Below are positions 593-49,221 of a stretch of DNA of 64,000 nucleotides, in pieces (positions within the stretch are counted from its first letter, which is position 1; the number at the start of each line of letters is the position of its first letter). This stretch comes from a bacterium (GTDB lineage Bacteria > Omnitrophota > Gorgyraeia > Zapsychrales > Zapsychraceae): the NCBI GenBank assembly GCA_030429765.1, contig JAUIER010000005.1:3175-67174 (forward strand), in the 5' to 3' direction. Made by a program: the position numbers and the translations under genes. The notes below the pieces were generated by a model, which saw nothing but the letters and a program-made list of their open reading frames with translations, ran no database searches and was not told where the DNA came from.

Positions 593-596
593 CTAT

Positions 597-10400: not shown

Positions 10401-11509
10401 AGAAACACCTGACTCTTGGCATCGGTAATTGTCAGCATGTTATGACTGGTATCATAGGTAAAACTCTTGGTTAATCCCGCCGGATACTGAGCTGACGTTG
10501 GTTTGGTGATACTTAGTAGATGCGCGGAATTGGCATCGTAGGTGAAGGTGATCGTTCGTCCGGCATAGTCCACTATCGAACTTAGTTTTCCATCCGAATT
10601 ATAATTGAGATCAATTTCCCGTCCGACCGTATCAATAATCTTAGTTAGCTGGTAGTCATACCCGACAACAACAGGCGTTAAAGACTTACTAAAATCTGAA
10701 TGCGCGTGAATAGGAATAGCACCACTCGGATTATATTGGAAGGTTATCTGATTTCCGTGGCGGTCCACTATCGCCGTTAATTTACCATCAATATCAAATT
10801 CATATTTGGTTCCATTGGGTCGGGTCATGCTCCACGATCCATCGACATTTTGTACCAATGTTCTGAATACCCCAGCTGGAGCTTCATAAACTCCGGCATT
10901 ATAGGTAAATTCATCCTGCCGGCCATTCTCTGAAATTACAATTGCGTTACCATTACTCATCGGACGGACACGGTAGTAATAACTCATCGTCCACCCATAG
11001 CCAAACTGACCGTTGTAATTTTTGCCGCTACGGTATAAGTGATTAATAGCGACATTGAGGCCTCGCCCGGGAATATATAGGTCTGTGCAATAATAGTAGA
11101 ACTCACCACTGTGCAGGTATACTGGGTCAGCACCCGTTTCAGAACCTTCTCCTGGCTTTGGTGTGTTCTCGGAAGGATTCCGCGCTTCAAAACAACCTCC
11201 GCCAAGTGTAGGCATACCATTTGGATTTTGCTTTGGTTGTGGTTTCTGTGAAGAGTCTTCTGTCTCCGGGACCGGCTGCTTATCGCCATTGGGAAGTGCA
11301 CCTCCACCATCGCCACCCGGTGGCTGGCCTTGTTGCGCTTGATCATTTACCGGGGCAGGCGCTGGAAGCGAATCTCCAAAATCTACACCACCAACCCCAT
11401 CCCAAGGATTGACATGAAGAGCCATGGCCGAATATGGAACAATACAGCTCCAGGCAAACGTTAGCAATGTGATAAAGGCAATCGACTGAAGTTTTTTGAA
11501 TATTTTCAT
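7418..11509 (-). CDS. RHS/YD-repeat polymorphic toxin with Sec signal peptide, RHS-associated core ending in DPLGL, and a ~135-aa C-terminal tip of unknown type (hydrophobic helix plus Pro/Tyr/Lys-rich tail).
   Basis: Numerous YD repeats (YTYDxxNRxT, FxYDxxGN), RHS core motif GRRFDTEIGIYHYRARAYDPDIGRFLQRDPLGYYDSMNLFEYVLSNPINFTDPLGL, then ILPIALLLLLVAGVTYLI and a PKYWQYYPAEQPWYK...PKPQPQWEHY tail. Confidence 0.9.
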   Translation of the reverse strand: MKIFKKLQSIAFITLLTFAWSCIVPYSAMALHVNPWDGVGGVDFGDSLPAPAPVNDQAQQGQPPGGDGGGALPNGDKQPVPETEDSSQKPQPKQNPNGMPTLGGGCFEARNPSENTPKPGEGSETGADPVYLHSGEFYYYCTDLYIPGRGLNVAINHLYRSGKNYNGQFGYGWTMSYYYRVRPMSNGNAIVISENGRQDEFTYNAGVYEAPAGVFRTLVQNVDGSWSMTRPNGTKYEFDIDGKLTAIVDRHGNQITFQYNPSGAIPIHAHSDFSKSLTPVVVGYDYQLTKIIDTVGREIDLNYNSDGKLSSIVDYAGRTITFTYDANSAHLLSITKPTSAQYPAGLTKSFTYDTSHNMLTITDAKSQVFLTNTYDSEGRVERQDLGSGYYLFSYGVNTTTVTDRRGMVTTYNFDGNAALLSKEVFTQGIRTGDPASYITSYTYNSERQLETVTYPEGNGVKYVYDITNTDRRARGNVLQVRQKADMALADNNTNDIVTDFIYESNFNQVRTITDPKGNTYTYTFDYDLPTSDPKYGAAGNVVKLEQPTVNSQTPTTHFTYNAYGQITETQNPNGNITQFAYHATTGYLKDVIRDPSGINAITSLTYDTYGNVDTITDANTNVTDLDYNELGWLIKTTNDLGYETKYTYDQNGNVTKLERQADDPVTVWQTIEYTYDILNNVLTMKDPLNRTMTYTYDLSENVATVTDAETNVTTYVYDERDLLFEHKDANTPQGVTQYDYDKNGNLVKITDAESNATDYAYDGFDRRTSKTYADSSGSTYQYDKNSNLTKHTTPSGNAIDYVYDVLNRRTDKTYTTDSNLDVTYTYDVGSRLTDADTTASSVGYTYDALNRVATTTQTLNSNNYTLTFNYDDYGNRTKLTYPSGKVVDYAYDDLNRMTDIDVNTAGLLDYTYDPLNRRTKKSFINTNLPVADYDYDIANQLLQLKNDVLPSTNVSTFDYTYDNVSNRLTMTTGGATQTYAYNDIYELTGVTGAQTHSYAYDNVGNRTTADSASYTSNNLNQYDQVGTQTYTYDSNDNLQSDGTNTYTYDEQNRLIQMQNSSHTATYEYDAFNRRVSKTVDGTTTYFVYDGSEVIEEYSSSNVLQADYVMGRGIDEVLTMDRSSTTYYYHFDGLNSIRNISNSSGTVLETYDYDPYGKITTSLSSIGNPYYFTGRRFDTEIGIYHYRARAYDPDIGRFLQRDPLGYYDSMNLFEYVLSNPINFTDPLGLQVAETAAVAGAAGTGSAISSCGILPIALLLLLVAGVTYLIQDSKKPKYWQYYPAEQPWYKTKYFTGPSVKPPYKPGLEAQTALNLPTSNPGTGVRPYKPKFPFPAGPRHPKPQPQWEHYTPGWGVEWYDGPFFPE

Positions 11510-13630: not shown

Positions 13631-16600
13631 CTACTCAAATACGGTAATGTTTCCGTCAATCACCTGGGTTGTCGAGTCTTTTGTCACGGATAATCTGATT
13701 TTGTAATGCCCTTCGGTATCTACAAACTTACCTAAATCATTCAAGCCATCCCACTCTACCGTATGGCTTCCGATATTAGTGAACACATTATTAACTAAGG
13801 TCGCCACCGTCTGATCCTGGGTATCAACAATGGTTAGGGTAACGTTCCCCGATTCGGATATAGTATATTCAATCTCCGTCGATTGACCGTAGACCGGATA
13901 TATAACATAGGGGTCGGCCTGAATAGTTGATGTAGTTAGGCCTGGATGATTGTCAACAATAATCGCATTGTCGGGCAAAATCTTAGACCATGCCAATACC
14001 GTATGGTCGTCTGCCACAGGCATATCTCCATCATCCGTACGACCGTCCCAAATAACAGTATTACCGGTCGTATCACTCGGAAGATACTCCACGAGGCGTC
14101 GATCCATGTAATGCTCGCCATGCCGGCCTACCCAGAGAATCACCCAGGACGGAACGCTGACGTCATAAGAAACAGTGACCGTTTCACCTTGATATGGATT
14201 GAATGTCGCCGGTGTGACACTCATATTCGAGAAAGTCGCCGTACCGGAGACATATTCGGGATCATAGGTGAAATTCATTGTAGAATCGACTGCGTCAATT
14301 GTATATACATATGCCGAGTCATCCAAATCAGTATTAGTGGAATCTTTTCCATTCCATACAAAGGTATTGGCTCCGGCTGTCCGGGCTGAATTTAGCAACA
14401 GTGTATCTTCATACACCCGGTAATATTTGCCATTCGAGATGTACACATCTCCTTTGTATATTTTGATCGTCACATCCGCGTCCCGATCCAGCGTAAAATT
14501 GATAGTTGATGTCTGTCCACTGCCAGGATCGATGGAAGTGTCTGTGTGCGAAACATTGGTTATCAAATCATTTGGATAAGCCTGCCCCCAAATTCGAGCA
14601 TCAGTAACCATATGATTGAAATAATAGATACTGCTGTCTACGAACAAAGAATTGGAACTGGCCACCGTGCTTGTATAAAATACCATTTCATTTTTGAGAT
14701 ACGTGATCGTCGTTCCAGTGCGCTCAATTTTAATCTTATCACCGGCCTGATACGGACCAAAATCTCCCCTGGAGACACCACTTTCATAAACTTCAAGCGT
14801 TTGGTTGTCTGTGACATATATTCCATAATCGATGGTTTCCCAGCTGTTATTAGTATTGGTGTCCGATAGACCGACAATATAGGCCTTATCGATATTTGTC
14901 ATCTCGAAATCAAGTGCAAAATCTCCGGTAAATATTCCGGTTGATATGGCACCGGCATTTCCCCATCCTGCTCCGATATTCTTTTGTAAGTCATTTCCAT
15001 AAGCAACTCCTCCAACAATATCTCGCCATACGACATCCGAATTAATGTCCGGCTTGGCACTCACGACGTTTGACGCTCCACCGGAGCCAATCGCATTCTT
15101 GGTGACAACTCTAAATTGATAAGACGTACCATTAGATAAACCTGTAATCGTTGCACCGGTCACAGCGTCATCTGCGTATGTTGAGCCAAAAGTCCCACTG
15201 GCCACCGTGCCGTATTCTACATCATACCCCGTAATAACTGAGCCTCCGTTGGAAGGTGCGGACCAATACAAACTAGCACTTGAGTCATCAGCTTGCACAT
15301 ATAGATCATTCACAGCCCCAGGAACGGTCGGGACAACGCCTAAAAATTTAGCATCCTGTATGGTTGCTCCATAGTCATAAAATGCTGTATCTACGAGCAA
15401 AACTCCTGCACTTGGTACAGAACTGCGGTAAAAAACAACACCGTTTTTATGATAGGATATTTCCGAACCATTCCGTACTATCTGAAATTTATCACCCGTC
15501 TGATACGTACTTAAATTACCTCTATCAGTCCCCCCTTCGTAAACATGTACCACACCACCTGGAATCAGGTCTATGGCATAGTCAATTGTAGTATAATTGG
15601 CATCTACATTGACATCTGAAAACCCGCACAAACGATAAGTTGTTGTTTCATTGGCTGTAAATTCTATTCCGAAATCCCCTTCAAAAGATGACGTTGAAGC
15701 CCCGCCAGCAGCACCCCATCCTCCCCCCATAGAGGTCTTAGCCAAATCGTTTCCCGTGGCGCCAACTCCGACAAAATCGGTCCATACAACATCGATTGGC
15801 ACTCGAGGTGTAATTGTAAGAATGTTGGATGCCTGGCCGCTCCCGTTGGCATTCTTGGCTACAATTCTAAACTGATAAGAGGCCCCTGTTGTGAGTCCCG
15901 TGACTGTCGCGCCAGGTACAGCGTCATCCGTATAGGTGGAAGCAAAAGTTCCGCTACTGACTAAACCATACTGAACCTCATACTCCGTTATTGGGGAACC
16001 ATTGCTGGCAGGTGCGGACCAATCCAAGTCGATACTGGTACCTTGGGAAATCCCAATCAAATCAGATACAGCGTCTGGTGCCGACGTCGAAATTCCAAAA
16101 AACTGTGCGTTCGTAATCGTTGATCCGTTCCAGTTCAATGCAGCATCGACAAGCAATGCTCCGGAACTTGGCGTAGCACTTGTGTAGAAAGTGACACCGT
16201 TCTTTTTGTACAGAATACTGGTCCCCATGCGTTCAACCGCAAAAATATCTCCCGATTGATACGTTCCAAAGGCCCCCTTATAGCTCCCGTTTTCATAAAC
16301 CTGAACACCAGCGCTCGAGGTCAAATAAAGAGCATAGTCAATAGACGTATAGTTGGCATTCACGTTGACATCGGACAAACCGCACATTCGGTGCTTATTG
16401 GTTTCAGTTGCCTCAAATTGAACACCGAAATTACCGGTCTGCGTAGAGTCCGAAGCCGCACCTGCAACACCCCATGTACCCCCGACATTCTGGGTGATGG
16501 TGTTGCCTGTTGCTGTAACGCCAACCAAATCCGTCCATACGACATCAACCAGGGCACTTGGCGTGACAAGGACAACATTTGACGCTGGTCCCGTACCAAT

Positions 16601-17404
16601 CGAATTTTTGGCCACAACCCTGAACTGATACTCTGTACCAGTCGTCAAACCTGTAATTGTGGCACCCGGGCTGGCATCGTCCGTATAAGTTGAACCAAAC
16701 GTACCGCTGGTGACAGTCCCGTACTGAACCTCGTACTCAGTTATGGCTGAGCCTCCATCCGACGGTGCCGACCATGACAATATGGCGGTGGTCGTTGTAA
16801 AATCCGATGACAAATCATTGATTGCACCGGGCGCTTGAGCAGGAACACCTGTAAATTTTGCATCGAGAATACTGCGATTGGTGTAGTAAAAACTGGTATC
16901 TGCCAATAAATCGCCAGTGCTAGAGATGGTGCTTGTATAAAATGTAGTTCCGTTTTTCTTATACGTAATCGTTGTCCCTGTTCTTTCTACCTTAAATACA
17001 TCCGAGAGACTAAACGATCCGAAACTTCCTCTCAAAGTGCCACTTTCATACACCTCGACTGTCGCTGAATTAGAGAAATAAATGGCATAATCAATGGTAT
17101 CCCAGTCCGCATCTGCGTTTGTACTGGAGAGACCACACAGAGTGTTATTGTAGGAAAGTGTATTTGTGGAAAATTCTAAACCGAAATCTCCGCTATGTTT
17201 ATCCGTAGAGGCCGCTCCTCCATTGTTCCAACCATTTCCAGCGGTTTTGGTGAGATCATTCCCGCTGGCGGACACACCCACCAGATCCGTCCAGACGACA
17301 TCAACATCTGCCGCATAGACGCAAGGAACCATGATTATTAAAAACATCCAAATTATAGAGATTTTAAGTAAATGGGTGAGAATCGGGAGTTTTTTTCTGC
17401 GCAT
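13631..17404 (-). CDS. Large secreted or cell-surface repeat protein: four tandem ~250-aa units, each an unknown ~170-aa beta domain (VDVVWTDLVGV...) followed by a fibronectin type III domain, then C-terminal Ig-like (FlgD-Ig-like) domains.
   Basis: FN3 consensus (ITEYEVQYG...YTDDA.PGAT.TGLT.G..YQFRVVAKN..G.G.ASN) repeated four times; signal peptide; 1257 aa. Confidence 0.7.
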   Translation of the reverse strand: MRRKKLPILTHLLKISIIWMFLIIMVPCVYAADVDVVWTDLVGVSASGNDLTKTAGNGWNNGGAASTDKHSGDFGLEFSTNTLSYNNTLCGLSSTNADADWDTIDYAIYFSNSATVEVYESGTLRGSFGSFSLSDVFKVERTGTTITYKKNGTTFYTSTISSTGDLLADTSFYYTNRSILDAKFTGVPAQAPGAINDLSSDFTTTTAILSWSAPSDGGSAITEYEVQYGTVTSGTFGSTYTDDASPGATITGLTTGTEYQFRVVAKNSIGTGPASNVVLVTPSALVDVVWTDLVGVTATGNTITQNVGGTWGVAGAASDSTQTGNFGVQFEATETNKHRMCGLSDVNVNANYTSIDYALYLTSSAGVQVYENGSYKGAFGTYQSGDIFAVERMGTSILYKKNGVTFYTSATPSSGALLVDAALNWNGSTITNAQFFGISTSAPDAVSDLIGISQGTSIDLDWSAPASNGSPITEYEVQYGLVSSGTFASTYTDDAVPGATVTGLTTGASYQFRIVAKNANGSGQASNILTITPRVPIDVVWTDFVGVGATGNDLAKTSMGGGWGAAGGASTSSFEGDFGIEFTANETTTYRLCGFSDVNVDANYTTIDYAIDLIPGGVVHVYEGGTDRGNLSTYQTGDKFQIVRNGSEISYHKNGVVFYRSSVPSAGVLLVDTAFYDYGATIQDAKFLGVVPTVPGAVNDLYVQADDSSASLYWSAPSNGGSVITGYDVEYGTVASGTFGSTYADDAVTGATITGLSNGTSYQFRVVTKNAIGSGGASNVVSAKPDINSDVVWRDIVGGVAYGNDLQKNIGAGWGNAGAISTGIFTGDFALDFEMTNIDKAYIVGLSDTNTNNSWETIDYGIYVTDNQTLEVYESGVSRGDFGPYQAGDKIKIERTGTTITYLKNEMVFYTSTVASSNSLFVDSSIYYFNHMVTDARIWGQAYPNDLITNVSHTDTSIDPGSGQTSTINFTLDRDADVTIKIYKGDVYISNGKYYRVYEDTLLLNSARTAGANTFVWNGKDSTNTDLDDSAYVYTIDAVDSTMNFTYDPEYVSGTATFSNMSVTPATFNPYQGETVTVSYDVSVPSWVILWVGRHGEHYMDRRLVEYLPSDTTGNTVIWDGRTDDGDMPVADDHTVLAWSKILPDNAIIVDNHPGLTTSTIQADPYVIYPVYGQSTEIEYTISESGNVTLTIVDTQDQTVATLVNNVFTNIGSHTVEWDGLNDLGKFVDTEGHYKIRLSVTKDSTTQVIDGNITVFE
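14300..17311. repeat. Intragenic tandem repeat, four copies with ~756-bp period, encoding the repeated modules of the surface protein.
   Basis: Protein-level repeats starting near residues 32, 285, 537 and 785 with high similarity imply DNA-level tandem repeats. Coordinates approximate. Confidence 0.6.
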
Positions 17405-21937: not shown

Positions 21938-23143
21938 TTATGCCGCAGATCGCGGTTCACGAACAATTGAAAGCTCAGAATTTAAAACATCGCCATCAAG
22001 GCCATTTTGAAATAATAGGCTGTCTAATTTGTCCCCAACCGCAACATTATCAACGGGTAAAAGATGCCCATATCTGTCCATAGTTGTCTGAATTGAACTG
22101 TGCCCGAGTTGGCTCTGAATGAACTTCGCATTCTCCCCCTGGGCTATCAATAATGACGTATATGAATGTCGTAAATCATGGAATCTAATCTTTCTTAAAC
22201 CAGCCCTCTCCAAAGCTGGATGAAATTCGCGTTTTAACATATTGTCACCACTGATCGGATTCCCTTCTTTGTTTGCAAATACGAGATCATGTTCATTAAT
22301 CGGACTGACTATCTTATGGATCTCAAGTGCCTTTTTTAGATTGGCAGACATGACAATAGCTCGCTTTGATCGTGCAGACTTCGGGGCTACAAATTGCCAC
22401 CCACCCCCTTTTAGGGTACTTTTTGTACTGTACAAACTGCGCCTGACATGGATGGTATTGCTATTCCAGTCTATATCCCCCCATTGCAACGCTAGCACTT
22501 CGCTACGCCTCATCCCGGTCATTACCGCCGTCATAAACAAGGTCCGATATGGCTCATCTGCGTTATTAAGCAGCAAATTTATCTCGGATGGGTTCAAATA
22601 GTCCATTTCTCTATGTTCTTCCTTGAATTTTTTGATATCCGCAGCCGGATTGATCTTCGTATGTCCCCACTCCTTCGCGTGCTTGAAGAGTGTTTTCATC
22701 AGCACCAGAATATTATTTACAGTTTTAGGACTTCTGGTTTTTGCAATATCAGCCAAAAACGACCTGATATCTCCGGCGTTGATCTTTGATACTGTACCGC
22801 CCTTAAAGGCTGGCCTGAGATGACAATTAATGATATTCTCATAATTATTGTATGTCCGCTGCTTTACCCTTGGCCGGGCGTATTCGTCCAACCATTTATC
22901 GGCAAATGCTCCAAATTTTATATCTACGACTTCGGAGAATTCACCCATGACAACCTGAGCTAAACGTCTGGCCAAGAGCTTCTCAGCAAGCTTCTTGTTT
23001 GTTCCGACTGTTTCGCGCTTTTGACGACCATTAACCCTGTAGGCTATGTAATAAACGGGATTCTTACAGCCGCCGTTGGCATTACAATACGCCTTCCCTT
23101 TACGTGAACAGACCTTACACCGTTTTAATACCGATCCCCTCAA
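21938..23143 (-). CDS. int: Tyrosine site-specific integrase (phage integrase family) with N-terminal Cys-rich arm-binding-like region; TTG start.
   Basis: C-terminal catalytic box RFHDLRHSYTSLLIAQGENAKFIQSQLGHSSIQTTMDRYGHL (R...HxLRH...Y) and upstream R (GMRRSEVLAL). Confidence 0.9.
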   Translation of the reverse strand: MRGSVLKRCKVCSRKGKAYCNANGGCKNPVYYIAYRVNGRQKRETVGTNKKLAEKLLARRLAQVVMGEFSEVVDIKFGAFADKWLDEYARPRVKQRTYNNYENIINCHLRPAFKGGTVSKINAGDIRSFLADIAKTRSPKTVNNILVLMKTLFKHAKEWGHTKINPAADIKKFKEEHREMDYLNPSEINLLLNNADEPYRTLFMTAVMTGMRRSEVLALQWGDIDWNSNTIHVRRSLYSTKSTLKGGGWQFVAPKSARSKRAIVMSANLKKALEIHKIVSPINEHDLVFANKEGNPISGDNMLKREFHPALERAGLRKIRFHDLRHSYTSLLIAQGENAKFIQSQLGHSSIQTTMDRYGHLLPVDNVAVGDKLDSLLFQNGLDGDVLNSELSIVREPRSAA

Positions 23144-23148
23144 TCTGA

Positions 23149-23343
23149 CTACCTCGATTGCTTTCTGATAAAACCAAGAACTTCCTCTGGATCAAATCGC
23201 AAATACTTGCCAACCTTATAGTGTGGAATACCATCCTGCCCTTGTGCCGTACGTTCGTACAGCCACCATTTAGTTACATTAAGTATTTGGGCCATCTCTT
23301 CAACATTGACCAAATTTGGTAATTTTTCGTTGGATAATTTCAA
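23149..23343 (-). CDS. xis: Excisionase/AlpA-like helix-turn-helix DNA-binding protein.
   Basis: 64 aa; VEEMAQILNVTKWWLYERTAQGQ..IPHYKVGKYLRFDPEEV matches the excisionase-family HTH pattern; located just upstream of int. Confidence 0.7.
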   Translation of the reverse strand: MKLSNEKLPNLVNVEEMAQILNVTKWWLYERTAQGQDGIPHYKVGKYLRFDPEEVLGFIRKQSR

Positions 23344-23498
23344 TATTATCGCCTTTCCTTAGATTCGTACACGCTTATTTAATTCACCCTATATCGTCGA
23401 CATTGACTGATTTTTTTCATTATTTCCCTTGTTTTCAACCCCTCTATATACTGCATTCTCTGTCGCAAATAACATTAAGTATATTTGTCAATGTCGTC

Positions 23499-25718
23499 TT
23501 ATTTGTTTAACAAGTGCTTAAGTTTAATATTGATCCATATGTGTCCAGTTGAGCCTCTAGACTCCTCAATTTTAGCGAAGTGCTTTTTTAGATGTCTTCC
23601 AAAATTAATTTTTGACAAGGGAAAACATCCGGAACTCTCACAATATTCAACATATCGAATGTATAATAGTTTTTTAGTGACACTCCATTCATTATTCAAT
23701 ATCTTGCCATTTGACTTTTTAAATTTTAGTGTCTTCCTTTTCAATCCAGATTTAGATACCCCTCGCACGGCACACTCCTCCGAAACAAACTGAAGAACAT
23801 TATTTTGCTCAATTCTGTACTTCTCTACATCCATTCTCATCTTTGATGTCACTTGAAACCTACCCCTATTCTCCAAGTTCCCCAACCCTTCAATCATCCA
23901 ATTTAGAATCCCCGAAAGCTCTTCCAGAAGTTTATTCTTCAAATTTCGATCATCCTTTTTTCCTTGAAACTGCTGTGTGTATCTGATGATAATTAATCTT
24001 CGAAAAAATGCGTCGGTCTTATCGTCAACCCGAGGCAGGTCGTTCATGGCAAAAATTAATTTCACAAACGGATTGAACTCAAAGGGTTGACCATACTTTC
24101 TGTCAGCTGTAATTGTATCTCCGCTGACAATTGCCTTAAAATTTGCATCATGTATCGCTTTTTTTGCTTCGGATTCGATTGAAATATTGACCAGCTTCCC
24201 ACTAAGTTGAGCGATATAGTGGCGGTTTCCAAAACACTCCATAGGTACTGAACTACAATTTTCTTTGCCTACTATTTTCTCAAAGACAGAAAAAAGTACA
24301 GATTTACCATTGGCTCCTTCTCCTACATTAAGAAGTGCTACTTGATGTGAATTATTTGGCGTTAAGCAGTAGCCCATGAACTCCTGCAAAACTGATATTT
24401 TCCCGACATCATCGGCAAATATCTGCCCTAAAGTCTCAATAAAAAGGGGGCATTCTGCCTTTGAGTCATACTCAATGGGGATTCTAATAGTTGAGATAAA
24501 ATCCGAAGCGTGAGGATCCAGTTTTCCTGTCCGAATATTTAAAATTCCATTTTTCATATTTAGACGATGCTTATCTTCATTTATCTTTTCTCCAGAAATA
24601 AAACTCTCTGTTAGCAGGGAATGAATTACATCATTGCATCTACTAATCTTAAATTGATTCTTCAATTCACGCTTGACCCATTTCTTGACAACTTCATCCG
24701 GGACTGGTTGATAATAGCCATCTTTATACTCATAGAATACTTTATTTGAGTTTATAATTTTGTGTTCAGACAGTATTTTGTCAGCTGTTATATTTGGATT
24801 AAATTGTCCAGCTACAACTACGTCTCCAGTTTCCTTCTCGTACTTTTTACAAGACTGAATGTATTTCTCAAATTTGGCTTTCCCGTATTTTTCTAAATAT
24901 TGCCGAATATCCCATCCCGACTTCAATTTACTAGTGAATTTCATAATCCGCACTTCCTGGGCCACATCAAATACCTTACCTGAAAATCTCTCTGCCCCTT
25001 TAAATCCAGCTTCATCATTATCTGGGATGATGTATACCACCTTTCCGCTAAAGTACTCAATTTCGTACTTTTTTATATTTCCCGCACCTGCTGTTCCGAC
25101 TGCAGGATAGCCGTTGTCCTTAAGAGCCAACGCACTCCATGGACCTTCAGCGACAAATATTCTCTTTTCATTACAATTGAATAAGTCTTCGACGCCGTAG
25201 AGTATATTTTCAGCACCTCTGGAGGAAATAGTGTCGCCCCCCAAGCACTTCTTATAAATGTTCCTTATAACCCCTTTCTTGTCTCTGGCTGGTAATGTAT
25301 ACTGGCCTTGCTTATTCATCCCTAATTCTGAATTTTTAAGTATTTCCCTTGATAGACCTCTTTCCTTAGCAAACTCCTCCAATTTCTTCTCAGACATATT
25401 ATCTATATACTGATCTACACTAGCCTGTGAAAATCTCGGCTTCTTTCTTCTTGCAATCTTAATGGGCTTTCTAGTTCTAAAACTATTTATTTCTTTAATA
25501 GTATCTATTTGACTCATATTCTTTAAAGCTCTTAAAAATGTTATGGCATTTCCCTGGAAATCACATACTTTACAATCGCATTGTCCAGTTTCTCTACTAG
25601 CGTAGAAGTGTTGCTCTTTATAGCAGAATGGACAGTCACCTTGAATTTGATCATCTCCAGAAAGTCCTGCTGCTTCAAGATGCTTAAAGTACAATTCTAC
25701 ATAATTTATATCCTCCAT
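23499..25718 (-). CDS. Primase-helicase of phage/plasmid P4 type: CHC2 zinc finger, Toprim domain, then D5-N/P4 C-terminal SF3-like NTPase.
   Basis: GDCPFCYKEQHFYA...CDCKVCDFQGNAITFL (zinc finger); RIFVAEGPWSALAL...YIIPDNDEAGFKGAER (Toprim); GEGANGKS Walker A and DDKTDAFFRRLIII. Confidence 0.85.
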   Translation of the reverse strand: MEDINYVELYFKHLEAAGLSGDDQIQGDCPFCYKEQHFYASRETGQCDCKVCDFQGNAITFLRALKNMSQIDTIKEINSFRTRKPIKIARRKKPRFSQASVDQYIDNMSEKKLEEFAKERGLSREILKNSELGMNKQGQYTLPARDKKGVIRNIYKKCLGGDTISSRGAENILYGVEDLFNCNEKRIFVAEGPWSALALKDNGYPAVGTAGAGNIKKYEIEYFSGKVVYIIPDNDEAGFKGAERFSGKVFDVAQEVRIMKFTSKLKSGWDIRQYLEKYGKAKFEKYIQSCKKYEKETGDVVVAGQFNPNITADKILSEHKIINSNKVFYEYKDGYYQPVPDEVVKKWVKRELKNQFKISRCNDVIHSLLTESFISGEKINEDKHRLNMKNGILNIRTGKLDPHASDFISTIRIPIEYDSKAECPLFIETLGQIFADDVGKISVLQEFMGYCLTPNNSHQVALLNVGEGANGKSVLFSVFEKIVGKENCSSVPMECFGNRHYIAQLSGKLVNISIESEAKKAIHDANFKAIVSGDTITADRKYGQPFEFNPFVKLIFAMNDLPRVDDKTDAFFRRLIIIRYTQQFQGKKDDRNLKNKLLEELSGILNWMIEGLGNLENRGRFQVTSKMRMDVEKYRIEQNNVLQFVSEECAVRGVSKSGLKRKTLKFKKSNGKILNNEWSVTKKLLYIRYVEYCESSGCFPLSKINFGRHLKKHFAKIEESRGSTGHIWINIKLKHLLNK

Positions 25719-26897: not shown

Positions 26898-27443
26898 TTA
26901 AGCCAGTGATGAGATACCTTGCCAATAATTTACATATTGGCTGAGATTTCGATCTGGATTGGAATAGTCATGTTTGGCTATCTGAATCTGTTCATCTTTG
27001 GAAAGTCCTCTTGTTTCCCAGCACTGCCCCTTCTTTGTAATCATAAGATACGTTTGCCAAACCTTCATCTTGCCGTGAATTGAAGTAAGAAATTCGTGGA
27101 GCGTTTTGGGAGGAAGTATTACATATTGGATCTTTTTGCTGTGGATTGACATTAGAGTAAAAACCCATAGATCCGCAACGGACTTTTCCATCTTCTCTGG
27201 ATTCAAAGACCACCATCCCCAAGCTGCAAGATTTTCCCTTAAGTATGCGGTCGAATTCTGAATCAGGAAATCTTTACTGAACTTAACCTGAAGCGAGACT
27301 GTTTTTTTGTTGGTTTTATCAGTGACAAGAAGGTCAACCCCGGTATCTTTGGAAGGAACCCATACATTCAAGCCCTTGAATGTAGATTCAATATGGCTGG
27401 CTACAAGATACTCCCCGGCATGAATGGTAAAAATTGGCCTCAT
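26898..27443 (-). CDS. Small putative PD-(D/E)xK-fold (restriction-endonuclease-like) protein.
   Basis: Pattern HAGEYLVASHIE ... GVDLLVTDK ... SLQVKFSK fits E-(n)-D-(n)-(E/Q)xK of the nuclease fold. Inference only. Confidence 0.4.
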   Translation of the reverse strand: MRPIFTIHAGEYLVASHIESTFKGLNVWVPSKDTGVDLLVTDKTNKKTVSLQVKFSKDFLIQNSTAYLRENLAAWGWWSLNPEKMEKSVADLWVFTLMSIHSKKIQYVILPPKTLHEFLTSIHGKMKVWQTYLMITKKGQCWETRGLSKDEQIQIAKHDYSNPDRNLSQYVNYWQGISSLA

Positions 27444-27510: not shown

Positions 27511-27753
27511 ATGGCAATCAATTCTGAACTCGATAATCTACGATCCAAACTAGCGACCACTATCAGAAACCGAAGAAAAAAACTGAAGTTATCCCAAGAG
27601 GATATGGCTGAATTGGCCGAGATTGATAGAACATACGTAAGCAGGTTGGAGAATGGAAGGGTTGATATTAGCGTTGCCGTAGCTTTTAAGGTGGCCCTAG
27701 CCTTAAAAACCACACTCTCGCAAATCATTAAAGAAACTGAAAAATCTTTATAA
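27511..27753 (+). CDS. XRE-family helix-turn-helix transcriptional regulator (Cro/C1-type).
   Basis: LKLSQEDMAELAEIDRTYVSRLENGRVDISVAVAFKVALALKTTLSQI is a classic HTH_XRE pattern; preferred over the antisense ORF 27501..27758. Confidence 0.75.
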   Translation: MAINSELDNLRSKLATTIRNRRKKLKLSQEDMAELAEIDRTYVSRLENGRVDISVAVAFKVALALKTTLSQIIKETEKSL

Positions 27754-27754
27754 T

Positions 27755-29014
27755 TCAATTTCGTTCAAATACCACATCCAAAAACGGCACCAATGCTCTG
27801 GCTGATTCTTGCAACACCCTAATGGCTTGCTCAGTTTTCACAACTTTAGATCTACCTAGCCTAATTTCCACACCTATCTGCATTTGTAAATTTGACTTCT
27901 TATTCTTCATTGCACTATAAGTTGCTGAAATCCATTCCGGCTGGTATTTCTCCTTACCTTTACTCTTGGCTATAGTTCGCAAATCATAATTTAATACAGC
28001 GTCCACAATCCCCGAGTGACTCTGACTCAAATAATGACGTTGCAATAACTTGATAGTCGGCTTTAGAGCTTCATCCATATCAATTGACTTACTCATCCTA
28101 TTTGAAACCAACGTTATTAAATTATGAAATTCATCAAAATTGAGATTAAAAATCCTATTTCTATATTCGGTATTTAGACGATGTGGCAACGTTAACATCA
28201 TTTCAACTCGATCAAACATTATCCCAAAGGTTAAATGAGGATGCCTCGTAAAGTCCATTGTGGCCTTAGACTCCCTGAACCTTAAGAAATCCCATACGAC
28301 AGTTCCTTTTGTTCCTTTAATGGCTCCTCGTCCTGGTAATCTGGGATCAACCCCCAATTCTTTAATCAGCTTTCTATTTTGCTTAAACTCCGCTATTAGT
28401 AGCCTCAGCAATCTTTTAGCCTCTATATATGAATATGGATTGTCAGCATCAAAGGGGATACCCGAGAATTTCGTTAATGCTCCAGCCTTTAAATATTCGT
28501 CTTGTACCATGCGAGCCTCCAAAACTTCGAAATACTTAGTAAATAAATTGGGCCAAACTGAACGATTGGACTGCCGAATACCCCACTCATAAATCTCTCG
28601 CCAAGTCTTCTTATGCACATATTTGGGCAAAGATTTTGTCTCAAATTCTGCGGTAATAACAAGCAAACTCGGATTCTGATACCCTCGCTTGACTATCGTG
28701 CTATAGTGGCGCTTAAGCTGATTAATAGATAACTGACTTGCAACTTTGCTTTCAATGACAAGCATCCATCCATTATCATCAAATATGCAAGCATCCGGCA
28801 AACCCTTTCGTTCTGCCTCTTTCTCTTCAATCACTCCATGCCCCGGAAGGGACTGCTCAATTACGTTTAACTTATTTCGTTTTGTACACTTCTTACCAAC
28901 CGACCATCTCAAAAATTCTATTAGCAAATTGGTGTCTTGTGAAAGGCTTGATACGAGGGAATGTGTGAGTTTGTTTTCTGGCTGGCTGTATTGGTCAAAG
29001 ATATTACGCATCAA
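27755..29014 (-). CDS. Putative PD-(D/E)xK-like nuclease-domain protein (419 aa), downstream partner of the PHP-ATPase gene.
   Basis: N-terminal E13...T..; GLPDACIFDDNGWMLVIESKVASQ (D74 ... E88-S-K90) matches the PD-(D/E)xK core. No family could be assigned without a search. Confidence 0.45.
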   Translation of the reverse strand: MMRNIFDQYSQPENKLTHSLVSSLSQDTNLLIEFLRWSVGKKCTKRNKLNVIEQSLPGHGVIEEKEAERKGLPDACIFDDNGWMLVIESKVASQLSINQLKRHYSTIVKRGYQNPSLLVITAEFETKSLPKYVHKKTWREIYEWGIRQSNRSVWPNLFTKYFEVLEARMVQDEYLKAGALTKFSGIPFDADNPYSYIEAKRLLRLLIAEFKQNRKLIKELGVDPRLPGRGAIKGTKGTVVWDFLRFRESKATMDFTRHPHLTFGIMFDRVEMMLTLPHRLNTEYRNRIFNLNFDEFHNLITLVSNRMSKSIDMDEALKPTIKLLQRHYLSQSHSGIVDAVLNYDLRTIAKSKGKEKYQPEWISATYSAMKNKKSNLQMQIGVEIRLGRSKVVKTEQAIRVLQESARALVPFLDVVFERN

Positions 29015-29034
29015 AACCTTTCAATTTATTATTT

Positions 29035-32000
29035 TTATCTATTTTGATACTTCGCATCGCGATTATCGAATGCTGGTCGCGTTCCTTCCAAAACATCCAC
29101 AACATATGAGTTCATTTGCGGTGACTCAATTGCCCCTCCAAGATAATTAACTTTATAACTGTTTTTTCGATCAATTTCACAATAAATTATTTGCTCGGCA
29201 TCGCAAGCGACAGCAATATTAGGATGATGCGTAACCATAATTATCTGTCTCCGCCGTTTTACATCCTTTATAACCGGCTTAAGCAAAGTATAGACAGTTT
29301 GGCTGTCTAAGTTCTCTTCTGGTTGATCAACAATAATTGGATATTCACTCTTATCAACCAACAAATAAAATATAAGCAACAACGTACCTCTCTCACCGGG
29401 TGAAAGCTGAGTCAAATATTTATCATCAAGCTTTAAGGCATATTGAGGTTTAAGATAATCGAATGACCAAATAAAATCATAAACACCTTGTACTAAAACA
29501 TCCTTTCTCAATTGATCTTCAACACGCATAAACGGTTGTTTTTCATCTCTCAGATTTTGTTTTAGACTTTTTGTTATTTCTTCAGCAAAAACGATAACCT
29601 CATCAATTTTTCCAAAGTCTACACCTTCTATTAGCCGTTCTAATCTATCACTACCTTCAACCTTTCCCATGAAGGTTCCTGTCTTTCCTTGACTTATATA
29701 ATTCCCAAAGAATACAGATATAAAATTGGCTATCATTATACTGCTGTCAAAACTCAACCCAAGTTCATCTTTTATCAGCGCATTGTTGGCAATAAGGTCT
29801 TGAACAGGTTTAAATAATTGATTGTAAATTTGCCGAATAGCTTCAATTTGAGCAAATAAATTTCTTGCTTGCTCACTTCGCTTGATCTCTAATTCCTTTA
29901 ACTTATTGGGCAAATCATTTTTAATAGCCCTAATTTGTTCTTCAACATATTTAAGCGTTCCTGATATTTTTTTATCACCCTCAATTTTATTAAGTATTTT
30001 CTCCCATTCCCGTAAATCCTTAAGATAGGCTTGATATTTTTTATTTGGGGCATCTAGTGTTTCTTGTAGTTTTTCCGCATTCTCTGCCAGTTGTTGCTTT
30101 TTCATTACCAAACTTCTAGTGCCGGATTCACTTAAATATTCACCAGCCTTTATTTCTTGCCTGCTGAGACGACCTATCTTATTCTCTAAACTGCTTAAAT
30201 TTAATGTCAGACTTATAGTTGATGGTATATTCAAACTCAGTATTCTGAAATCATCAGCTGTATCATCTTTTAACTGTTCAAAGGATTTCTCAAAACCCTC
30301 AAGTTTTGTCCTAAGTTTTCGAGCCAACGCAATTCGTTCAGTGACAGCTTTCTTATAATTTACTGCAGATTCAATTCTATTTTCAAGCAACTCAATTTGG
30401 GTTTGTACTGCCTTGATCTGCTTATTTACAGCATCTATCTTTTTCTGCTCCTCTTTTGTTGGTTCACTAGGCTTAGACACCTCTTTAGGTTTGCCTTTCT
30501 TATGCGCAGAAATCTTTTGCTCTAATTCCTTTTTTTCGGATAGTAATTTTGTAAGAGTTTCTGGAGTTAATTGAATCTCGACACCAATAATTTCCGTGTT
30601 AATACGCGAAATCTGACTTCGAAAGCTGTCTAATTGCTGCTCTAATTCTTCACTATGATAGTGTATTAAATCCTCTAGACTATTGTGCCCAAGCCTGTTG
30701 TCTTCTGGTATATGAGAGAAGATTATACTGCGAAGTTCTTTCTGAAATTCATCAGAACTAGTTTCTGTGCAAATTGAGTCGAGATACGTTTGAGGAATAT
30801 ACTTTACTTTTTCAATCTTATTTAAGTCAGGATCTTGATCGAGCTGTATAGAATCTTTCGATCCATCAGCCCATGTCACTTCAGCAATAAAATTCGAAGC
30901 AAATTTCCCATTTTTCTCTCTAAACCTCTTACTAGTCAAAAAAGAAAAATATTTAGGTAGGCAATGAGTATTGCAAGCGGTTGCCATTATATCGGTCAAT
31001 GCGCTTTTTCCCTCTCCTTTATTTCCTATGATAGCAACCATATCAAAGTTTAATGGTATATCATTATCAAACCATTCTCTTGCCCCAGAGATAGTACCGA
31101 CTTTACTAATATTTATATGCGACAAATAATTAGTGCTATTGTTAGTTACCGTCTTAATTTTATCAGGCGTATCACATATATTGATGCGATCTTCTGGCTC
31201 ATTACAAATTTGTTTTAATCCTTCAAAAGTGGGATCAGCCTTGATCCAACAAAACTTATTTACCGGTTTAGAGTTACTATCTTTAAGTTGACCTATTTCA
31301 TCATTTGAATCGTGAGAATCACTCCCCTTAATGCAGGGTAATTTCTTACCAAACCAATCTTTATACTGTTGTTCAGTAAATTTTTGATTCTTCCATAGAA
31401 AAAAATCAATCTGATTCTTATTTGAAGATCCAATAATATTTGCGTTATTAATCAACCTTTGCTTAAAAAGTCTATCATTAACTGGATCAACCTCATCAGC
31501 ACCCCCATACTCATCGTAAGGAAGCCAAATTAAAAAACTATTACGTAAAGTTTTTTCACTTTTTAATTCATTGATTGTTGCAAAATAATCTACAGCAGCA
31601 TCATTCAGAAGATATATTGAATCGTTATAATGTGAACTGATTTTTTCATCATTAACTTTAAAAGATTTTATAGCATTTTCTATATCATCTGGGCTTAAAC
31701 TATTATCGAAAATTATATGAAAGTTAATGCGTGTACCACTTTTTTGGCTATGCTTACTAATTACAATATTATTCATCCTACACTCAACAACCGGCAGTAA
31801 TATTTTAATACGTAGCTTTTCTAAAGCATCTCTATATGCTTGATTACCTTTGCTGGCTTCATCTGGATCATTAAGCCTTTTAAGGACTTCTTTATATCCC
31901 GTAACAGAGAAATAGTCATTTATTCCGATTACATCACAATCAGCATTGCCTAACTGTATTATGAATTGATTCCAGTCCCCCTTAAATCCTGAGGATGCCG

Positions 32001-32094
32001 GACTATGTACATGTAGATCCCACTTCCGCCAAATGGAACCTACCTGGTTTGTTGTATCATTCCGAAGTTCTGTTTTGATGATATTACCCTCCAA
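29035..32094 (-). CDS. PHP-domain phosphoesterase fused to an SMC/RecN/SbcC-like ABC ATPase with a long coiled-coil insert (1019 aa); candidate defence protein; TTG start.
   Basis: PHP motifs WDLHVHS, VIGINDY, ECRM, NFHIIF, GSDSHD. Walker A GNKGEGKS. ~300-aa coiled coil. ABC signature LSPGERG. Walker B IIVDQPE. H-loop MVTHHP. Confidence 0.7.
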   Translation of the reverse strand: MEGNIIKTELRNDTTNQVGSIWRKWDLHVHSPASSGFKGDWNQFIIQLGNADCDVIGINDYFSVTGYKEVLKRLNDPDEASKGNQAYRDALEKLRIKILLPVVECRMNNIVISKHSQKSGTRINFHIIFDNSLSPDDIENAIKSFKVNDEKISSHYNDSIYLLNDAAVDYFATINELKSEKTLRNSFLIWLPYDEYGGADEVDPVNDRLFKQRLINNANIIGSSNKNQIDFFLWKNQKFTEQQYKDWFGKKLPCIKGSDSHDSNDEIGQLKDSNSKPVNKFCWIKADPTFEGLKQICNEPEDRINICDTPDKIKTVTNNSTNYLSHINISKVGTISGAREWFDNDIPLNFDMVAIIGNKGEGKSALTDIMATACNTHCLPKYFSFLTSKRFREKNGKFASNFIAEVTWADGSKDSIQLDQDPDLNKIEKVKYIPQTYLDSICTETSSDEFQKELRSIIFSHIPEDNRLGHNSLEDLIHYHSEELEQQLDSFRSQISRINTEIIGVEIQLTPETLTKLLSEKKELEQKISAHKKGKPKEVSKPSEPTKEEQKKIDAVNKQIKAVQTQIELLENRIESAVNYKKAVTERIALARKLRTKLEGFEKSFEQLKDDTADDFRILSLNIPSTISLTLNLSSLENKIGRLSRQEIKAGEYLSESGTRSLVMKKQQLAENAEKLQETLDAPNKKYQAYLKDLREWEKILNKIEGDKKISGTLKYVEEQIRAIKNDLPNKLKELEIKRSEQARNLFAQIEAIRQIYNQLFKPVQDLIANNALIKDELGLSFDSSIMIANFISVFFGNYISQGKTGTFMGKVEGSDRLERLIEGVDFGKIDEVIVFAEEITKSLKQNLRDEKQPFMRVEDQLRKDVLVQGVYDFIWSFDYLKPQYALKLDDKYLTQLSPGERGTLLLIFYLLVDKSEYPIIVDQPEENLDSQTVYTLLKPVIKDVKRRRQIIMVTHHPNIAVACDAEQIIYCEIDRKNSYKVNYLGGAIESPQMNSYVVDVLEGTRPAFDNRDAKYQNR

Positions 32095-32260
32095 TTTCTC
32101 TTAAACAAAAAAACCTCCGCCAACGCTGGCAAAGGTCTTAATTTTGATCGTATAGCGAATTTTTCCGTAAGATTTAACAACGCTAGCGTATGTAGATATT
32201 AGAGCAAATACGCCACCCAATGTCAATCGTTCGAAATCACTGACATTTCTCTACCATAGA

Positions 32261-32302: not shown

Positions 32303-32346
32303 AAAAAAATAACCCCCTGTAAGTGCTTGACCTACAAGGGGTTATT

Positions 32347-32347
<1 letters not shown>
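32303..32347 (-). terminator. Rho-independent terminator immediately downstream of tRNA-Met (arms aaataacccc / ggggttattt, followed on the minus strand by a T7 run).
   Basis: Inverted repeat plus poly-A at 32303..32309 on the plus strand. Confidence 0.55.
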
Positions 32348-32423
<76 letters not shown>

Positions 32424-47140: not shown

Positions 47141-47965
47141 TTATTTTATGGATTTATACTCGCCAATATGAGCGCATCTCTGGTTATCATAAGACGACGC
47201 CAAACTCGAGACTAAACGACACTTCTCACAGAGAAAATCAAATTCCCAAAACTTTGCCTCATCTCTGGTAGCGTATTCCGTAGCCCATGAATCACCGCAT
47301 AACGGACATCTTCTTCTTTTTTCACCCTCAATTCTGCCCCAATATCGCATCATGTAATAGTATGTGGGTATTTTAGTTTTCTTCTCAATTATGGAACACA
47401 ACTCCCGTCCTGTCGTTGAAAGCTCCGTAGTTGGATCGGCCAATTCTTTATATGCGGGAATTTCTAACTTTCCAGAACCTATCCAAATTCCATCATGTAA
47501 TCTGTACGAACGTATCCAGAAATGTATATCTTCAATTTCCTGATCATCCAATGGCAATAAATACAATGGAATTTTCTCTTTACGATTGAGTTTATAAACA
47601 CAATTTACATAGCCAAACATATCAGTATATAAAACCAAACCTTTTGAGGAACGCCAATTGGGAAATCTTTTTGGCACTCTATCATCAACAATCTTCCAAG
47701 TGGGATTCTTACCAAATATATCAAATATTTTTTCAATATATCCTAGGCACCATTGACTATGATATTTTTCTAATAACGAATCAGGTCTTGTTAAATTAAC
47801 GAACGATTGCACTTGCCCATTGGTGTAACACCATGAATATTGTGACCCTGCGATCTGCCCTCTACGCATTAGTTGTGTTTGATAGTCTACAACTAAATCG
47901 TTTATTTTCTCATCCGATATGTTTTTTTTCGGTTTTCCGAAGTTGATTTTTGCTGTTATGCACAT
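47141..47965 (-). CDS. Hypothetical protein with C-terminal zinc ribbon (AT-rich islet).
   Basis: CPLCGDSW...(22 aa)...CEKCRL. Confidence 0.4.
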   Translation of the reverse strand: MCITAKINFGKPKKNISDEKINDLVVDYQTQLMRRGQIAGSQYSWCYTNGQVQSFVNLTRPDSLLEKYHSQWCLGYIEKIFDIFGKNPTWKIVDDRVPKRFPNWRSSKGLVLYTDMFGYVNCVYKLNRKEKIPLYLLPLDDQEIEDIHFWIRSYRLHDGIWIGSGKLEIPAYKELADPTTELSTTGRELCSIIEKKTKIPTYYYMMRYWGRIEGEKRRRCPLCGDSWATEYATRDEAKFWEFDFLCEKCRLVSSLASSYDNQRCAHIGEYKSIK

Positions 47966-48010
47966 TTTATTTACCTTACAACATATTACATATTAAGAAT
48001 CTAAACACTC

Positions 48011-48481
48011 CTAACTTAGGCTAATCTTGCCACTTTTCTCCAAATTCGAGATAGCCTTTAGTACGTTATTGCGATTCTTCGCCGACTTCACCCAATTAGG
48101 TAATCGGCTAACCATACTTCGGTTTGACCAACCATGGGAAAATCTCAGATTCTCCCGTAAGCTTGCTTCGACATAGGACTTTACCTTGAACATATGCTCA
48201 TAGTTAAAGAACCAAAGTGTTTTTCCGCAACAATTAACTTGAAGCCATAACAACTCACCAAAAAAGGGATCAACTGGTTTATAAGAAAACCCATATCCTG
48301 GACTGGACTTTAACTTATTCAAACCACAATGAGTACACACAAGTTTTCTATCGGAACTAATTTTGTGCAAATCAGCAGTCACAATCTGTGCCAATGCTGA
48401 ACATCGAGGACACTTAACCAAAATACGTGTCGTGTAGCTATATTTACTCAATCCATTGTCTTGAAATCTTTTTGGATACAT
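48011..48481 (-). CDS. Hypothetical protein with N-terminal zinc ribbon.
   Basis: CPRCSALAQ...(20 aa)...CTHCGL. Confidence 0.4.
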   Translation of the reverse strand: MYPKRFQDNGLSKYSYTTRILVKCPRCSALAQIVTADLHKISSDRKLVCTHCGLNKLKSSPGYGFSYKPVDPFFGELLWLQVNCCGKTLWFFNYEHMFKVKSYVEASLRENLRFSHGWSNRSMVSRLPNWVKSAKNRNNVLKAISNLEKSGKISLS

Positions 48482-48483
48482 TA

Positions 48484-49221
48484 CTATAACCTACCTTCGG
48501 TATTTGTGATCTTCGTCCATTCTTCAGTAATATTATTATACAGCTCCTTCACCCAATCCGGTTGATCTAAACCTGCCGCTAATTGATTCTTTCGCGGATC
48601 GGTCGGGGCAATAATGACCTGCACATAAGATATCCCAACCCGTTCTGAAATGATGAACAGCTCTTCGATAGCCTGATCCCCCATAGCCAGACATCCAATC
48701 GAAACATCCCGTCCGTGAATGAATATGTCGGACCCGGGATTGTCGCGCCCTTCAATCTCCGCCCATTTGAGGTCAAATGCATTGGGATAATTTAACTTCA
48801 TTGACAAGTGAAAGGAGCTATTCGGATTCAGGCCCACAACCTTGTATATTCCTTCAGGAACCTGCAGGTCACCTTCCCTGAGCTTAGGCCCTAGGACACC
48901 ACTGCTGCCTTGAATATCGTATGACTTGATAAATGACCATCTGTCTTGGTCATACGCCCAAAGCTCCATCCGCCGCTCATCCTTCATCGCTATCATCGCC
49001 AGCCCCTCAGGGGGATAGTCCACCCCTCTATTGTTGAAATATGGCCTTATTCTTGCTTCGACGTTCACTCCAAATTCACTTACAACGTCGGAAACCGTCC
49101 TTCTACCTTTTGCCTTCATGTATGCTCCATACCAAATATCTTTACTCAACAAAACCAGCATTGCCAAGCCTACTATAAAAAACAGGAGAATTTTACTTTG
49201 AGCAGCAGTTTTAGTCTTCAT
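48484..49221 (-). CDS. L,D-transpeptidase-like (YkuD/ErfK catalytic domain) periplasmic protein.
   Basis: LNYPNAFD...GSDIFIHGRDVSIGCLAMGDQAIEEL matches the YkuD His...S-x-GC catalytic pattern; N-terminal anchor. Confidence 0.5.
   Translation of the reverse strand: MKTKTAAQSKILLFFIVGLAMLVLLSKDIWYGAYMKAKGRRTVSDVVSEFGVNVEARIRPYFNNRGVDYPPEGLAMIAMKDERRMELWAYDQDRWSFIKSYDIQGSSGVLGPKLREGDLQVPEGIYKVVGLNPNSSFHLSMKLNYPNAFDLKWAEIEGRDNPGSDIFIHGRDVSIGCLAMGDQAIEELFIISERVGISYVQVIIAPTDPRKNQLAAGLDQPDWVKELYNNITEEWTKITNTEGRL

Follow-up and report, generated by a model that had tools for sequence, protein, structure and literature searches.

A TrlF-family PHP-ATPase gene and a PD-(D/E)xK nuclease gene side by side on a tRNA-Met island of an Omnitrophota genome: candidate defense genes and the question of their partnership

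Two genes lying next to each other on a mobile island in a Candidatus Omnitrophota genome raise the question as to whether they form a single two-component defense system or are two independent units. The stretch of DNA analyzed, referred to below as the window, consists of 64,000 nucleotides (nt) of the contig JAUIER010000005.1. Gene A (29035-32094, minus strand) encodes a protein of 1019 amino acids (aa) that unites a PHP phosphoesterase and a coiled-coil ABC ATPase in one chain, and gene B (27755-29011, minus strand) encodes a protein of 418 aa, delimited by homolog alignment, in which a PD-(D/E)xK nuclease precedes a C-terminal YktB/DUF1054-like domain. In the original prediction, made from the sequence without database searches, two open reading frames (ORFs) of 1019 aa at 29035-32094 and 419 aa at 27755-29014 were proposed as a candidate novel two-gene defense module, not recognized as any named system. 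Both ORFs are present on the minus strand, and their domains were read correctly, as confirmed by the model NF045780, a PHP profile and Foldseek in the case of gene A and by the PD-(D/E)xK domain in that of gene B. The gene A protein, however, judging by its sequence, belongs to a named family, TrlF, and we give slightly better than even chances to the reading that A and B are two separate defense-island genes, brought together by chance in the cargo end of an integrative element inserted at tRNA-Met.

Gene A and the TrlF family

The gene A protein scores 628.8 bits against the NCBIfam model NF045780 ("TrlF family AAA-like ATPase"), the cut-off of which is 350 bits, and the alignment runs from residue 19 to residue 1017, that is, over positions 2-944 of the 944 in the model. 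By this measure it is a full-length, divergent member of the TrlF family, which yielded more than 4,400 matches in a protein search and to the bulk of which it is only about 53% identical. Its nearest TrlF relatives (52%) occur in loci without gene B. A protein identical to that of gene A, P0001, is encoded on an NCBI contig, and the model of the sister family Spaf_1101 gave a sub-threshold score of 97 bits (cut-off 475).

The PHP and ATPase motifs reported in the original prediction do exist, and they coincide with invariant columns in an alignment of 25 family members. In the PHP domain (approximately residues 19-310; 31165-32040, minus strand), which was delimited on the basis of invariant residues and an N-terminal profile, these are D26, H28, H30, D60, E104, H126, D194/E195, and H261, D259 being nearly invariant. 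The Pfam PHP model did not match the protein at E ≤ 0.1; the top PDB match of a profile of the N-terminal 300 aa was a solved PHP phosphoesterase, 9etk_A (E 1.1e-4), with weaker matches to 3e0f, PolC, and YcdX. The N-lobe of the ABC ATPase (30685-31122, minus strand), identified from invariant columns and from a match of the gene A profile to Rad50 heads at model positions 323-358, contains the Walker A motif GNKGEGKS at residues 357-364 (G357, K359, G360, and G362-S364 are invariant) and the invariant Q-loop residue Q435. The C-lobe (29035-29757, minus strand) carries the signature motif LSPGERG (L897-G903), the Walker B motif VDQPE (D923-E926), and the H-loop residue H956, all of them on invariant columns, and is matched by the PADLOC models of Ppl and AriA and by Pfam AAA_21 and SMC_N. 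The two lobes are separated by a coiled-coil insert of about 300 aa (approximately residues 473-770; 29785-30678, minus strand), which was recognized from Foldseek and from the helices of the AlphaFold model (residues 473-508, 511-533, 547-611, 634-653, 662-705, and 714-760). The mean predicted local distance difference test (pLDDT) score of this model is 70, and its best Foldseek matches are MukB, Rad50, LmuB, and JetC. The stretch from residue 473 to residue 770 is devoid of cysteine, so that a zinc hook of the Rad50 CxxC type is absent from the coiled coil.

A kinship with Ppl, a single-gene PHP and ATPase system reportedly named by Gao et al. in 2020, had been suggested in the original prediction. 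The two proteins are distant relatives: the score of gene A against the Ppl model NF042955 is 88 bits, with a cut-off of 1000 and homology over residues 245-1012, and that against the PADLOC Ppl model (PDLC02208) is 65 bits and concerns residues 895-1012 only, the last 120 or so. As these scores lie far below the cut-off, gene A belongs to a sister family, and its identification as a Ppl ortholog was rejected. In both cases a single polypeptide combines an N-terminal PHP domain with a C-terminal NTPase, whereas the gene A protein is longer than Ppl. Ppl is a validated single-gene defense system (PMC11482910), which has been described as a nucleoside triphosphate (NTP)-inhibited 3'-5' exonuclease of single-stranded DNA activated at 3'-OH ends (2026 review, PMC12904381), and these ends, made by an endonuclease, have been reported to be a requirement of the system (PMC12904381). 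The gene A protein probably follows the same principle, that of an exonuclease gated by nucleotides and active at DNA ends. Sequence profiles retrieved no solved structure of Ppl or TrlF, the only matches being AriA, Rad50, and ABC-transporter heads.

TrlF takes its name from the temperature-restriction locus (TRL) trlR-trlF-trlG of Photorhabdus laumondii (PMC7554251), which restricts the growth of the host at 36 °C (PMC7554251); all the heat-tolerant suppressors obtained mapped to trlG, which encodes a protein with AlbA_2 and HATPase_c_4 domains, and none to the larger trlF (PMC7554251). The Photorhabdus protein (NF045780) has the same architecture as that of gene A, a PHP domain with a coiled-coil ABC ATPase, and TrlF loci are likewise variable and horizontally spread. 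The Photorhabdus operon includes trlG and an upstream trlR, whereas gene A is accompanied by neither: the gene downstream of it encodes a PD-(D/E)xK/DUF1054-like protein lacking AlbA_2 and HATPase_c_4 domains, and an XRE-type regulator lies beyond gene B, in convergent orientation.

The gene A protein also resembles SbcCD/Mre11-Rad50, in that a long antiparallel coiled coil divides the ABC head, which is coupled to a metal-dependent phosphoesterase nuclease. It differs from these complexes in that the nuclease is a PHP domain fused in cis instead of a calcineurin-like Mre11/SbcD subunit, there is no CxxC hook, and the gene is located on a mobile island and not in the core genome. The logic of an ATPase sensor combined with a nuclease effector is shared with Lamassu (LmuB), Wadjet (JetC), PARIS (AriA), and Gabija (GajA), and the ATPase head of gene A is similar to those of AriA, LmuB, and JetC. 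In these four systems, however, the effector is separate (TOPRIM, Cap4, or another nuclease) and specific partners are required, whereas the nuclease of gene A is fused to the ATPase and no kleisin or other partner is conserved.

Gene B and its nuclease family

The 34 gene B homologs aligned all begin with MR(N/H)(I/L/V)FDQY, which reads MRNIFDQY in gene B, and the start codon is therefore the ATG at 29011. The ORF that had been described does exist, but this start gives a protein of 418 aa instead of 419 and a spacer between A and B of 23 nt, in which there is an AAAGG ribosome-binding site, instead of 20.

The PD-(D/E)xK domain (28490-29011, minus strand) has a restriction-endonuclease-like fold and contains the residues E13, D74, E88, K90, and Q99, which are invariant in the 34 homologs; D74, E88, and K90 form the GLPD...ESK motif. 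Gene B therefore belongs to the PD-(D/E)xK superfamily, with that fold and an intact catalytic triad. The domain resembles NucS/EndoMS, and the C-terminal domain has the YktB fold. The pLDDT score of the AlphaFold model is 88.9. The known YktB/DUF1054 proteins (PDB 2a8e and 3mqz) are about 210 aa long and devoid of a nuclease domain, whereas the 418-aa protein of gene B has one.

No curated family was found to include gene B: the Pfam model PDDEXK_4 remains sub-threshold (20.8 bits, cut-off 22.3) and NCBIfam returned nothing. The PADLOC model PDC-S26 gave 24.2 bits over residues 79-175 only, and since this match covers only about 100 residues, membership of gene B in that group is not established. 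No solved relatives were detected by sequence. An exhaustive profile search yielded 1106 clusters at 50% identity (439 at E ≤ 1e-30); most of the representatives listed are about 410-450 aa long, and no fusions with the ATPase were seen among them. The distribution of the family is sporadic, with 172 loci in 185,579 species genomes.

Neighborhoods of the TrlF and gene B homologs

The co-occurrence of the two families was examined in two sets of loci: 80 loci from the species-representative genomes of GTDB, belonging to many phyla, in which the gene B homologs are 35-48% identical to that of the window, and 80 metagenome loci carrying a TrlF homolog. A TrlF-like protein was found within 8 kb of gene B in none of the former, even at E < 1, and a gene B homolog in none of the latter. 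P0132 and L102 belong to contigs of equal length (33,942 bp), which raised the possibility that a single contig carried both genes, but the names of the two records differ and there was no TrlF within 10 kb of P0132. At the family level, then, the two-gene module does not hold.

The 68 same-strand ORFs adjoining TrlF in the 80 metagenome loci (42 upstream and 26 downstream) were scanned with Pfam. These neighbors are variable and mostly of the restriction-modification type (ResIII in nine, RE_endonuc in eight), and they include type I, MmeI, XhoI, and JetA genes. In six loci (L090, L092, L094, L095, L140, and L166), TrlF is separated by 18-43 nt from a same-strand type III Res gene upstream of it, and a type III Mod gene was found further upstream in 11 loci, which suggests that a recurrent Mod-Res-TrlF operon exists; no description of such an operon was found. 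No TrlG-like gene was detected in any of the 80 loci. Since the same-strand neighbors mostly belong to restriction-modification systems, a defense role of TrlF is plausible.

The distant gene B homologs have no recurrent upstream or downstream partner in the 80 loci surveyed. Some of them adjoin type I restriction-modification, Mrr, NERD, or CRISPR genes. The ORFs of 130-190 aa frequently present 3' of gene B in these loci show no detectable similarity to one another, so that no conserved small gene was found in that position.

Closest relatives of gene B

In the loci carrying the closest homologs, gene B is preceded by a variety of genes. The upstream gene encodes a 910-aa TrlF-family protein (440 bits) in L082/83 (68% identity to gene B), where the locus occupies the same enolase-ftsB-tRNA-Met site, and a 782-aa PHP-ATPase with the motifs DLHIHT...TDHN (188 bits, below the TrlF cut-off), followed by an 84-aa ORF, in L169 (67%). 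In L170-172 (63%), Gabija is followed by a complete SPARTA system composed of a TIR-APAZ protein and a short prokaryotic Argonaute (pAgo), and gene B starts 7 nt after pAgo. The upstream genes are those of a type I restriction-modification system and an HNH nuclease in L084-87 (62%) and that of a TrlG-like protein with AlbA_2 and HATPase_c_4 domains in L088 (58%), and in L178-180 (51%) gene B is part of a CBASS-containing island.

The homology at the DNA level between these loci and the window starts exactly at the ATG of gene B (29011) in L082, L169, L170, L171, and L088, and 11 nt further upstream in L084. In L170 and L171 it continues through the XRE gene into the gene encoding the 181-aa protein C181: as in the window, gene B is followed in L170-172 by a convergent XRE gene and then by the 181-aa gene, and their products are 71% (XRE) and 61% (C181) identical to those of the window, the three genes forming a conserved B-XRE-C181 block. 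Because the homology starts at the ATG, gene B, or the B-XRE-C181 block, constitutes a unit of its own with an exchangeable upstream slot, and the filling of this slot in L170-172 by a complete SPARTA system likewise speaks against the predicted two-gene module.

Some details of these loci can be mentioned in passing. The Gabija-like genes of L171 (1-5993), which are part of an island related to that of the window, as well as those of L170 and L172, encode AAA_15/AAA_21 and UvrD proteins, and the SPARTA proteins, 471 aa (TIR-APAZ) and 499 aa (short pAgo) in length, were identified by PADLOC with E values of 1e-134 and 5e-193, respectively. The TrlG-like protein of L088 (6333-7742; SLFN_AlbA_2 and HATPase_c_4, 469 aa) is encoded immediately before the gene B homolog. 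TrlF, TrlG-like proteins, and gene B are thus linked pairwise in different genomes, and all three occur together in none of the loci seen.

The tRNA-Met island and its host

The host is a Candidatus Omnitrophota genome, the enolase of which is 90-97% identical to proteins bearing that name, and genes A and B are carried by an insertion of 31.75 kb at a tRNA-Met gene (32347-32423, minus strand; identified with ARAGORN). The insertion is bracketed by an exact direct repeat of 46 bp corresponding to the 3' part of the tRNA gene, one copy of which is located at 32346-32391 and the distal one, at the far end of the insert, at 596-641 (minus strand). In the relative L174, the enolase of which is 97% identical to that of the window, the island is absent and tRNA-Met is joined directly to the sequence corresponding to 644-519 (in that direction) of the window; since L174 carries this empty site, all the DNA from one repeat to the other, 31.75 kb in length, is an insertion. 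No second copy of the attachment (att) repeat, which would delimit an element of about 10 kb, is present beside the integrase gene, the sole other copy being that at 596-641.

The 10.8 kb or so closest to the tRNA gene are AT-rich, with a guanine plus cytosine (GC) fraction of 0.32-0.40 versus about 0.5 in the flanks. From the tRNA gene inward, this part carries, first of all within the att site, gene A, and then gene B, the XRE gene on the opposite strand, the genes of a 181-aa and a 253-aa protein, and those of a D5/DUF5906 primase, an HTH_17 protein, and an integrase. The mobility module identified with Pfam (21938-25718) is composed of the tyrosine integrase (21938-23143), the AlpA-like HTH_17 protein (23149-23343), and the D5/DUF5906 primase-helicase (23499-25718), all on the minus strand. 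The distal 21 kb (GC about 0.45-0.5) contain secretin/GspC-like, Rhs, fn3, PAS, sugar-transferase, and PEP-CTERM genes. The insert thus looks composite, its integrase/primase-element character being confined to the proximal 10.8 kb or so. The setting initially described, an AT-rich mobile island with the two genes between primase and tRNA, was correct, apart from the regulator, which lies on the opposite strand and is convergent with gene B; to regard this setting as an anti-phage one is plausible in view of the restriction-modification genes adjoining TrlF elsewhere, and an anti-phage function is what we would infer.

The XRE-type helix-turn-helix regulator (80 aa; 27511-27753, plus strand) was identified with Pfam HTH_3 (E 7.6e-15). 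The C181 gene is divergent from it (26898-27443, minus strand), and its product gave a weak match, below the cut-off, to Pfam Mrr_cat_2 (E 0.0036). These two genes may form a controller-plus-small-nuclease or a toxin-antitoxin pair. Elsewhere in the insert, an Rhs-repeat protein of 1363 aa (DUF6531 and RHS repeats; 7418-11509, minus strand) and an fn3/FlgD_ig protein of 1257 aa (13631-17404, minus strand) may constitute a polymorphic-toxin cassette. A terminator-like hairpin, in which 13 pairs precede a T-run, is located at 32110-32139 (minus strand), about 15 nt upstream of the TTG start codon of gene A and downstream of the terminator of the tRNA gene itself (32307-32347), and the interval between the tRNA gene and gene A yielded no sigma-70-like promoter.

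Outside the insert, a second low-GC patch (47141-50339) lies beside a tRNA-Phe gene (50264-50339, minus strand) and contains genes for a YkuD-domain protein, a DUF2310 Zn-ribbon protein (47141-47965), and a GIY-YIG protein (49719-50012), possibly as what is left of another small island. In L082, a related Omnitrophota contig, the tRNA-Met gene (around 4239-4276) is followed by two extra copies of the att repeat (4504-4549 and 5058-5107) bracketing a small PDDEXK_5 gene, with the TrlF-B pair located beyond them, which indicates that islands have accreted in tandem at the tRNA-Met site. A megablast search of the region against a collection of E. coli genomes gave no match.

Interpretation of the locus

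If A and B are separate genes, each of them would probably be autonomous. Gene A would probably act alone, as its distant relative Ppl does, and the lack of a conserved neighbor in the 80 TrlF loci is in line with single-gene action of a PHP-NTPase polypeptide. The Rad50/SMC-like ABC heads joined by the coiled coil would bind nucleotide and DNA, the engagement of the heads, governed by ATP or NTP, would determine whether DNA ends reach the PHP active site, and the fused metal-dependent phosphoesterase would digest invading DNA, starting at free 3' ends. Gene B would encode an independent PD-(D/E)xK endonuclease, the YktB/DUF1054-like domain of which presumably senses or selects the substrate, and it would travel as a cassette of its own, accompanied here by the XRE and 181-aa genes and located elsewhere behind many different defense systems.

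Several points weigh against this interpretation. There is no terminator-like hairpin in the 23-nt spacer between A and B. Many of the distant gene B homologs occur among housekeeping genes, in Pelagibacter for example, which makes the defense role of gene B itself uncertain. As for gene A, no phage assay of any TrlF-family protein was found in the literature, and the sole phenotype mapped to the Photorhabdus locus, temperature restriction, was obtained from mutations in trlG and not in trlF (PMC7554251). Above all, the gene B protein of the window and its two closest homologs, P0121 and P0122, which form a monophyletic group in a neighbor-joining tree with mutual identities of 67-72%, are each encoded after a same-strand PHP-ATPase, and three juxtapositions of so rare a type of protein with a single gene B clade are unlikely to be due to pure chance. 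To this extent something is left of the two-gene module, which fails at the family level: each of the three closest gene B homologs follows a PHP-ATPase, and a different one. The ATPases, of 1019, 910, and 782 aa (the last accompanied by the 84-aa ORF), share only about 30% identity, partly over the C-terminal ATPase motifs alone. Where the gene B proteins are 67-68% identical, the ATPases upstream are about 31-32% identical, so that the divergence is not comparable; nor is the homology block shared, since it starts at the ATG of gene B. One possibility is that the pair is ancestral and that relatives later took the place of its ATPase, a history that would hint at a functional link; alternatively, the cargo slot of this island lineage may favor PHP-ATPase genes.

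These observations are the main argument for a system restricted to one clade, in which the gene B product would cut or nick the target DNA, thus making the 3'-OH ends on which the PHP exonuclease acts, and the ATPase could be swapped between subfamilies. We regard this as possible but rather unlikely. The three ATPases of different subfamilies do look like an in-situ displacement, the spacing is tight (23 nt in the window, 65 nt in L082, and 4 nt after the 84-aa ORF in L169), Ppl reportedly needs 3'-OH ends made by an endonuclease (PMC12904381), and a gene resembling trlG, the partner of trlF in Photorhabdus, precedes gene B in L088. The sample amounts to three loci only, however, and two of these, the window and L082, are not fully independent, being islands of the same type at the same tRNA-Met site; moreover, co-occurrence at the family level is nil in both sets of 80 loci, gene B is just as tightly appended to the self-sufficient SPARTA system, and no A-B fusions are to be found among the representatives listed. 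A more specific version, to which we attach somewhat less weight still, is that one gene B subclade serves as an interchangeable "end-maker" for PHP-ATPase exonucleases, in a two-component Ppl-like system whose TrlF-like partners have been swapped in the course of an arms race. If so, an endonuclease encoded by the host would supply the 3'-OH entry sites that the single-gene Ppl obtains from phage homing endonucleases.

Two further explanations were considered. Gene A may, as in Photorhabdus, constitute a conditional toxin or stress locus, or else be a factor directed against plasmids or competing elements that serves the island: the founding locus acts on its own host, whose growth it restricts at 36 °C (PMC7554251), plasmids or DNA structures are the targets of the SMC-like relatives Wadjet and Lamassu, and no other gene lies between gene A and the att site of the mobile element. 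We consider this improbable, given that the Photorhabdus suppressors all affected trlG and none trlF (PMC7554251), that a TrlG homolog is lacking both here and in the 80 TrlF loci, and that TrlF neighborhoods are classic restriction-modification and defense contexts. A housekeeping repair complex like SbcCD/Mre11-Rad50, in which PHP would replace the Mre11 nuclease and gene B would be a repair endonuclease of the NucS/EndoMS type, seems very improbable indeed. The Rad50-like head and coiled coil of gene A, the resemblance of the gene B nuclease domain to NucS/EndoMS, and the housekeeping surroundings of some distant homologs, such as those of Pelagibacter, would fit it, whereas the location of the locus on acquired AT-rich DNA missing from a near-identical relative, the restriction-modification instead of repair genes adjoining TrlF homologs, and the sporadic distribution of gene B would not. 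An SbcCD-type complex was also rejected in terms of domains, there being no Metallophos domain, a nuclease consisting of a fused PHP, and no zinc hook in the coiled coil. The reading in terms of two separate genes is thus the one we prefer.

Significance of the findings

The locus is ordinary defense cargo on a tRNA-integrated island of an uncultured Omnitrophota genome, and the study of it led to three by-products: the frequent occurrence of TrlF after type III Res genes, the combination of a nuclease with DUF1054 in gene B, and the three-fold pairing of PHP-ATPases with one gene B subclade. TrlF is a large named family sharing the unusual design of Ppl, in which a predicted PHP exonuclease is combined with an SMC-like ATPase, and in our sample it often closes a type III restriction-modification operon. 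The compact gene B family, with its roughly 1,100 clusters at 50% identity, joins a nuclease to YktB/DUF1054 and could provide the first functional handle on DUF1054. If TrlF were shown to act against phages, with or without the cooperation of restriction-modification systems or gene B, it would be an addition to the end-sensing nuclease class of immunity.

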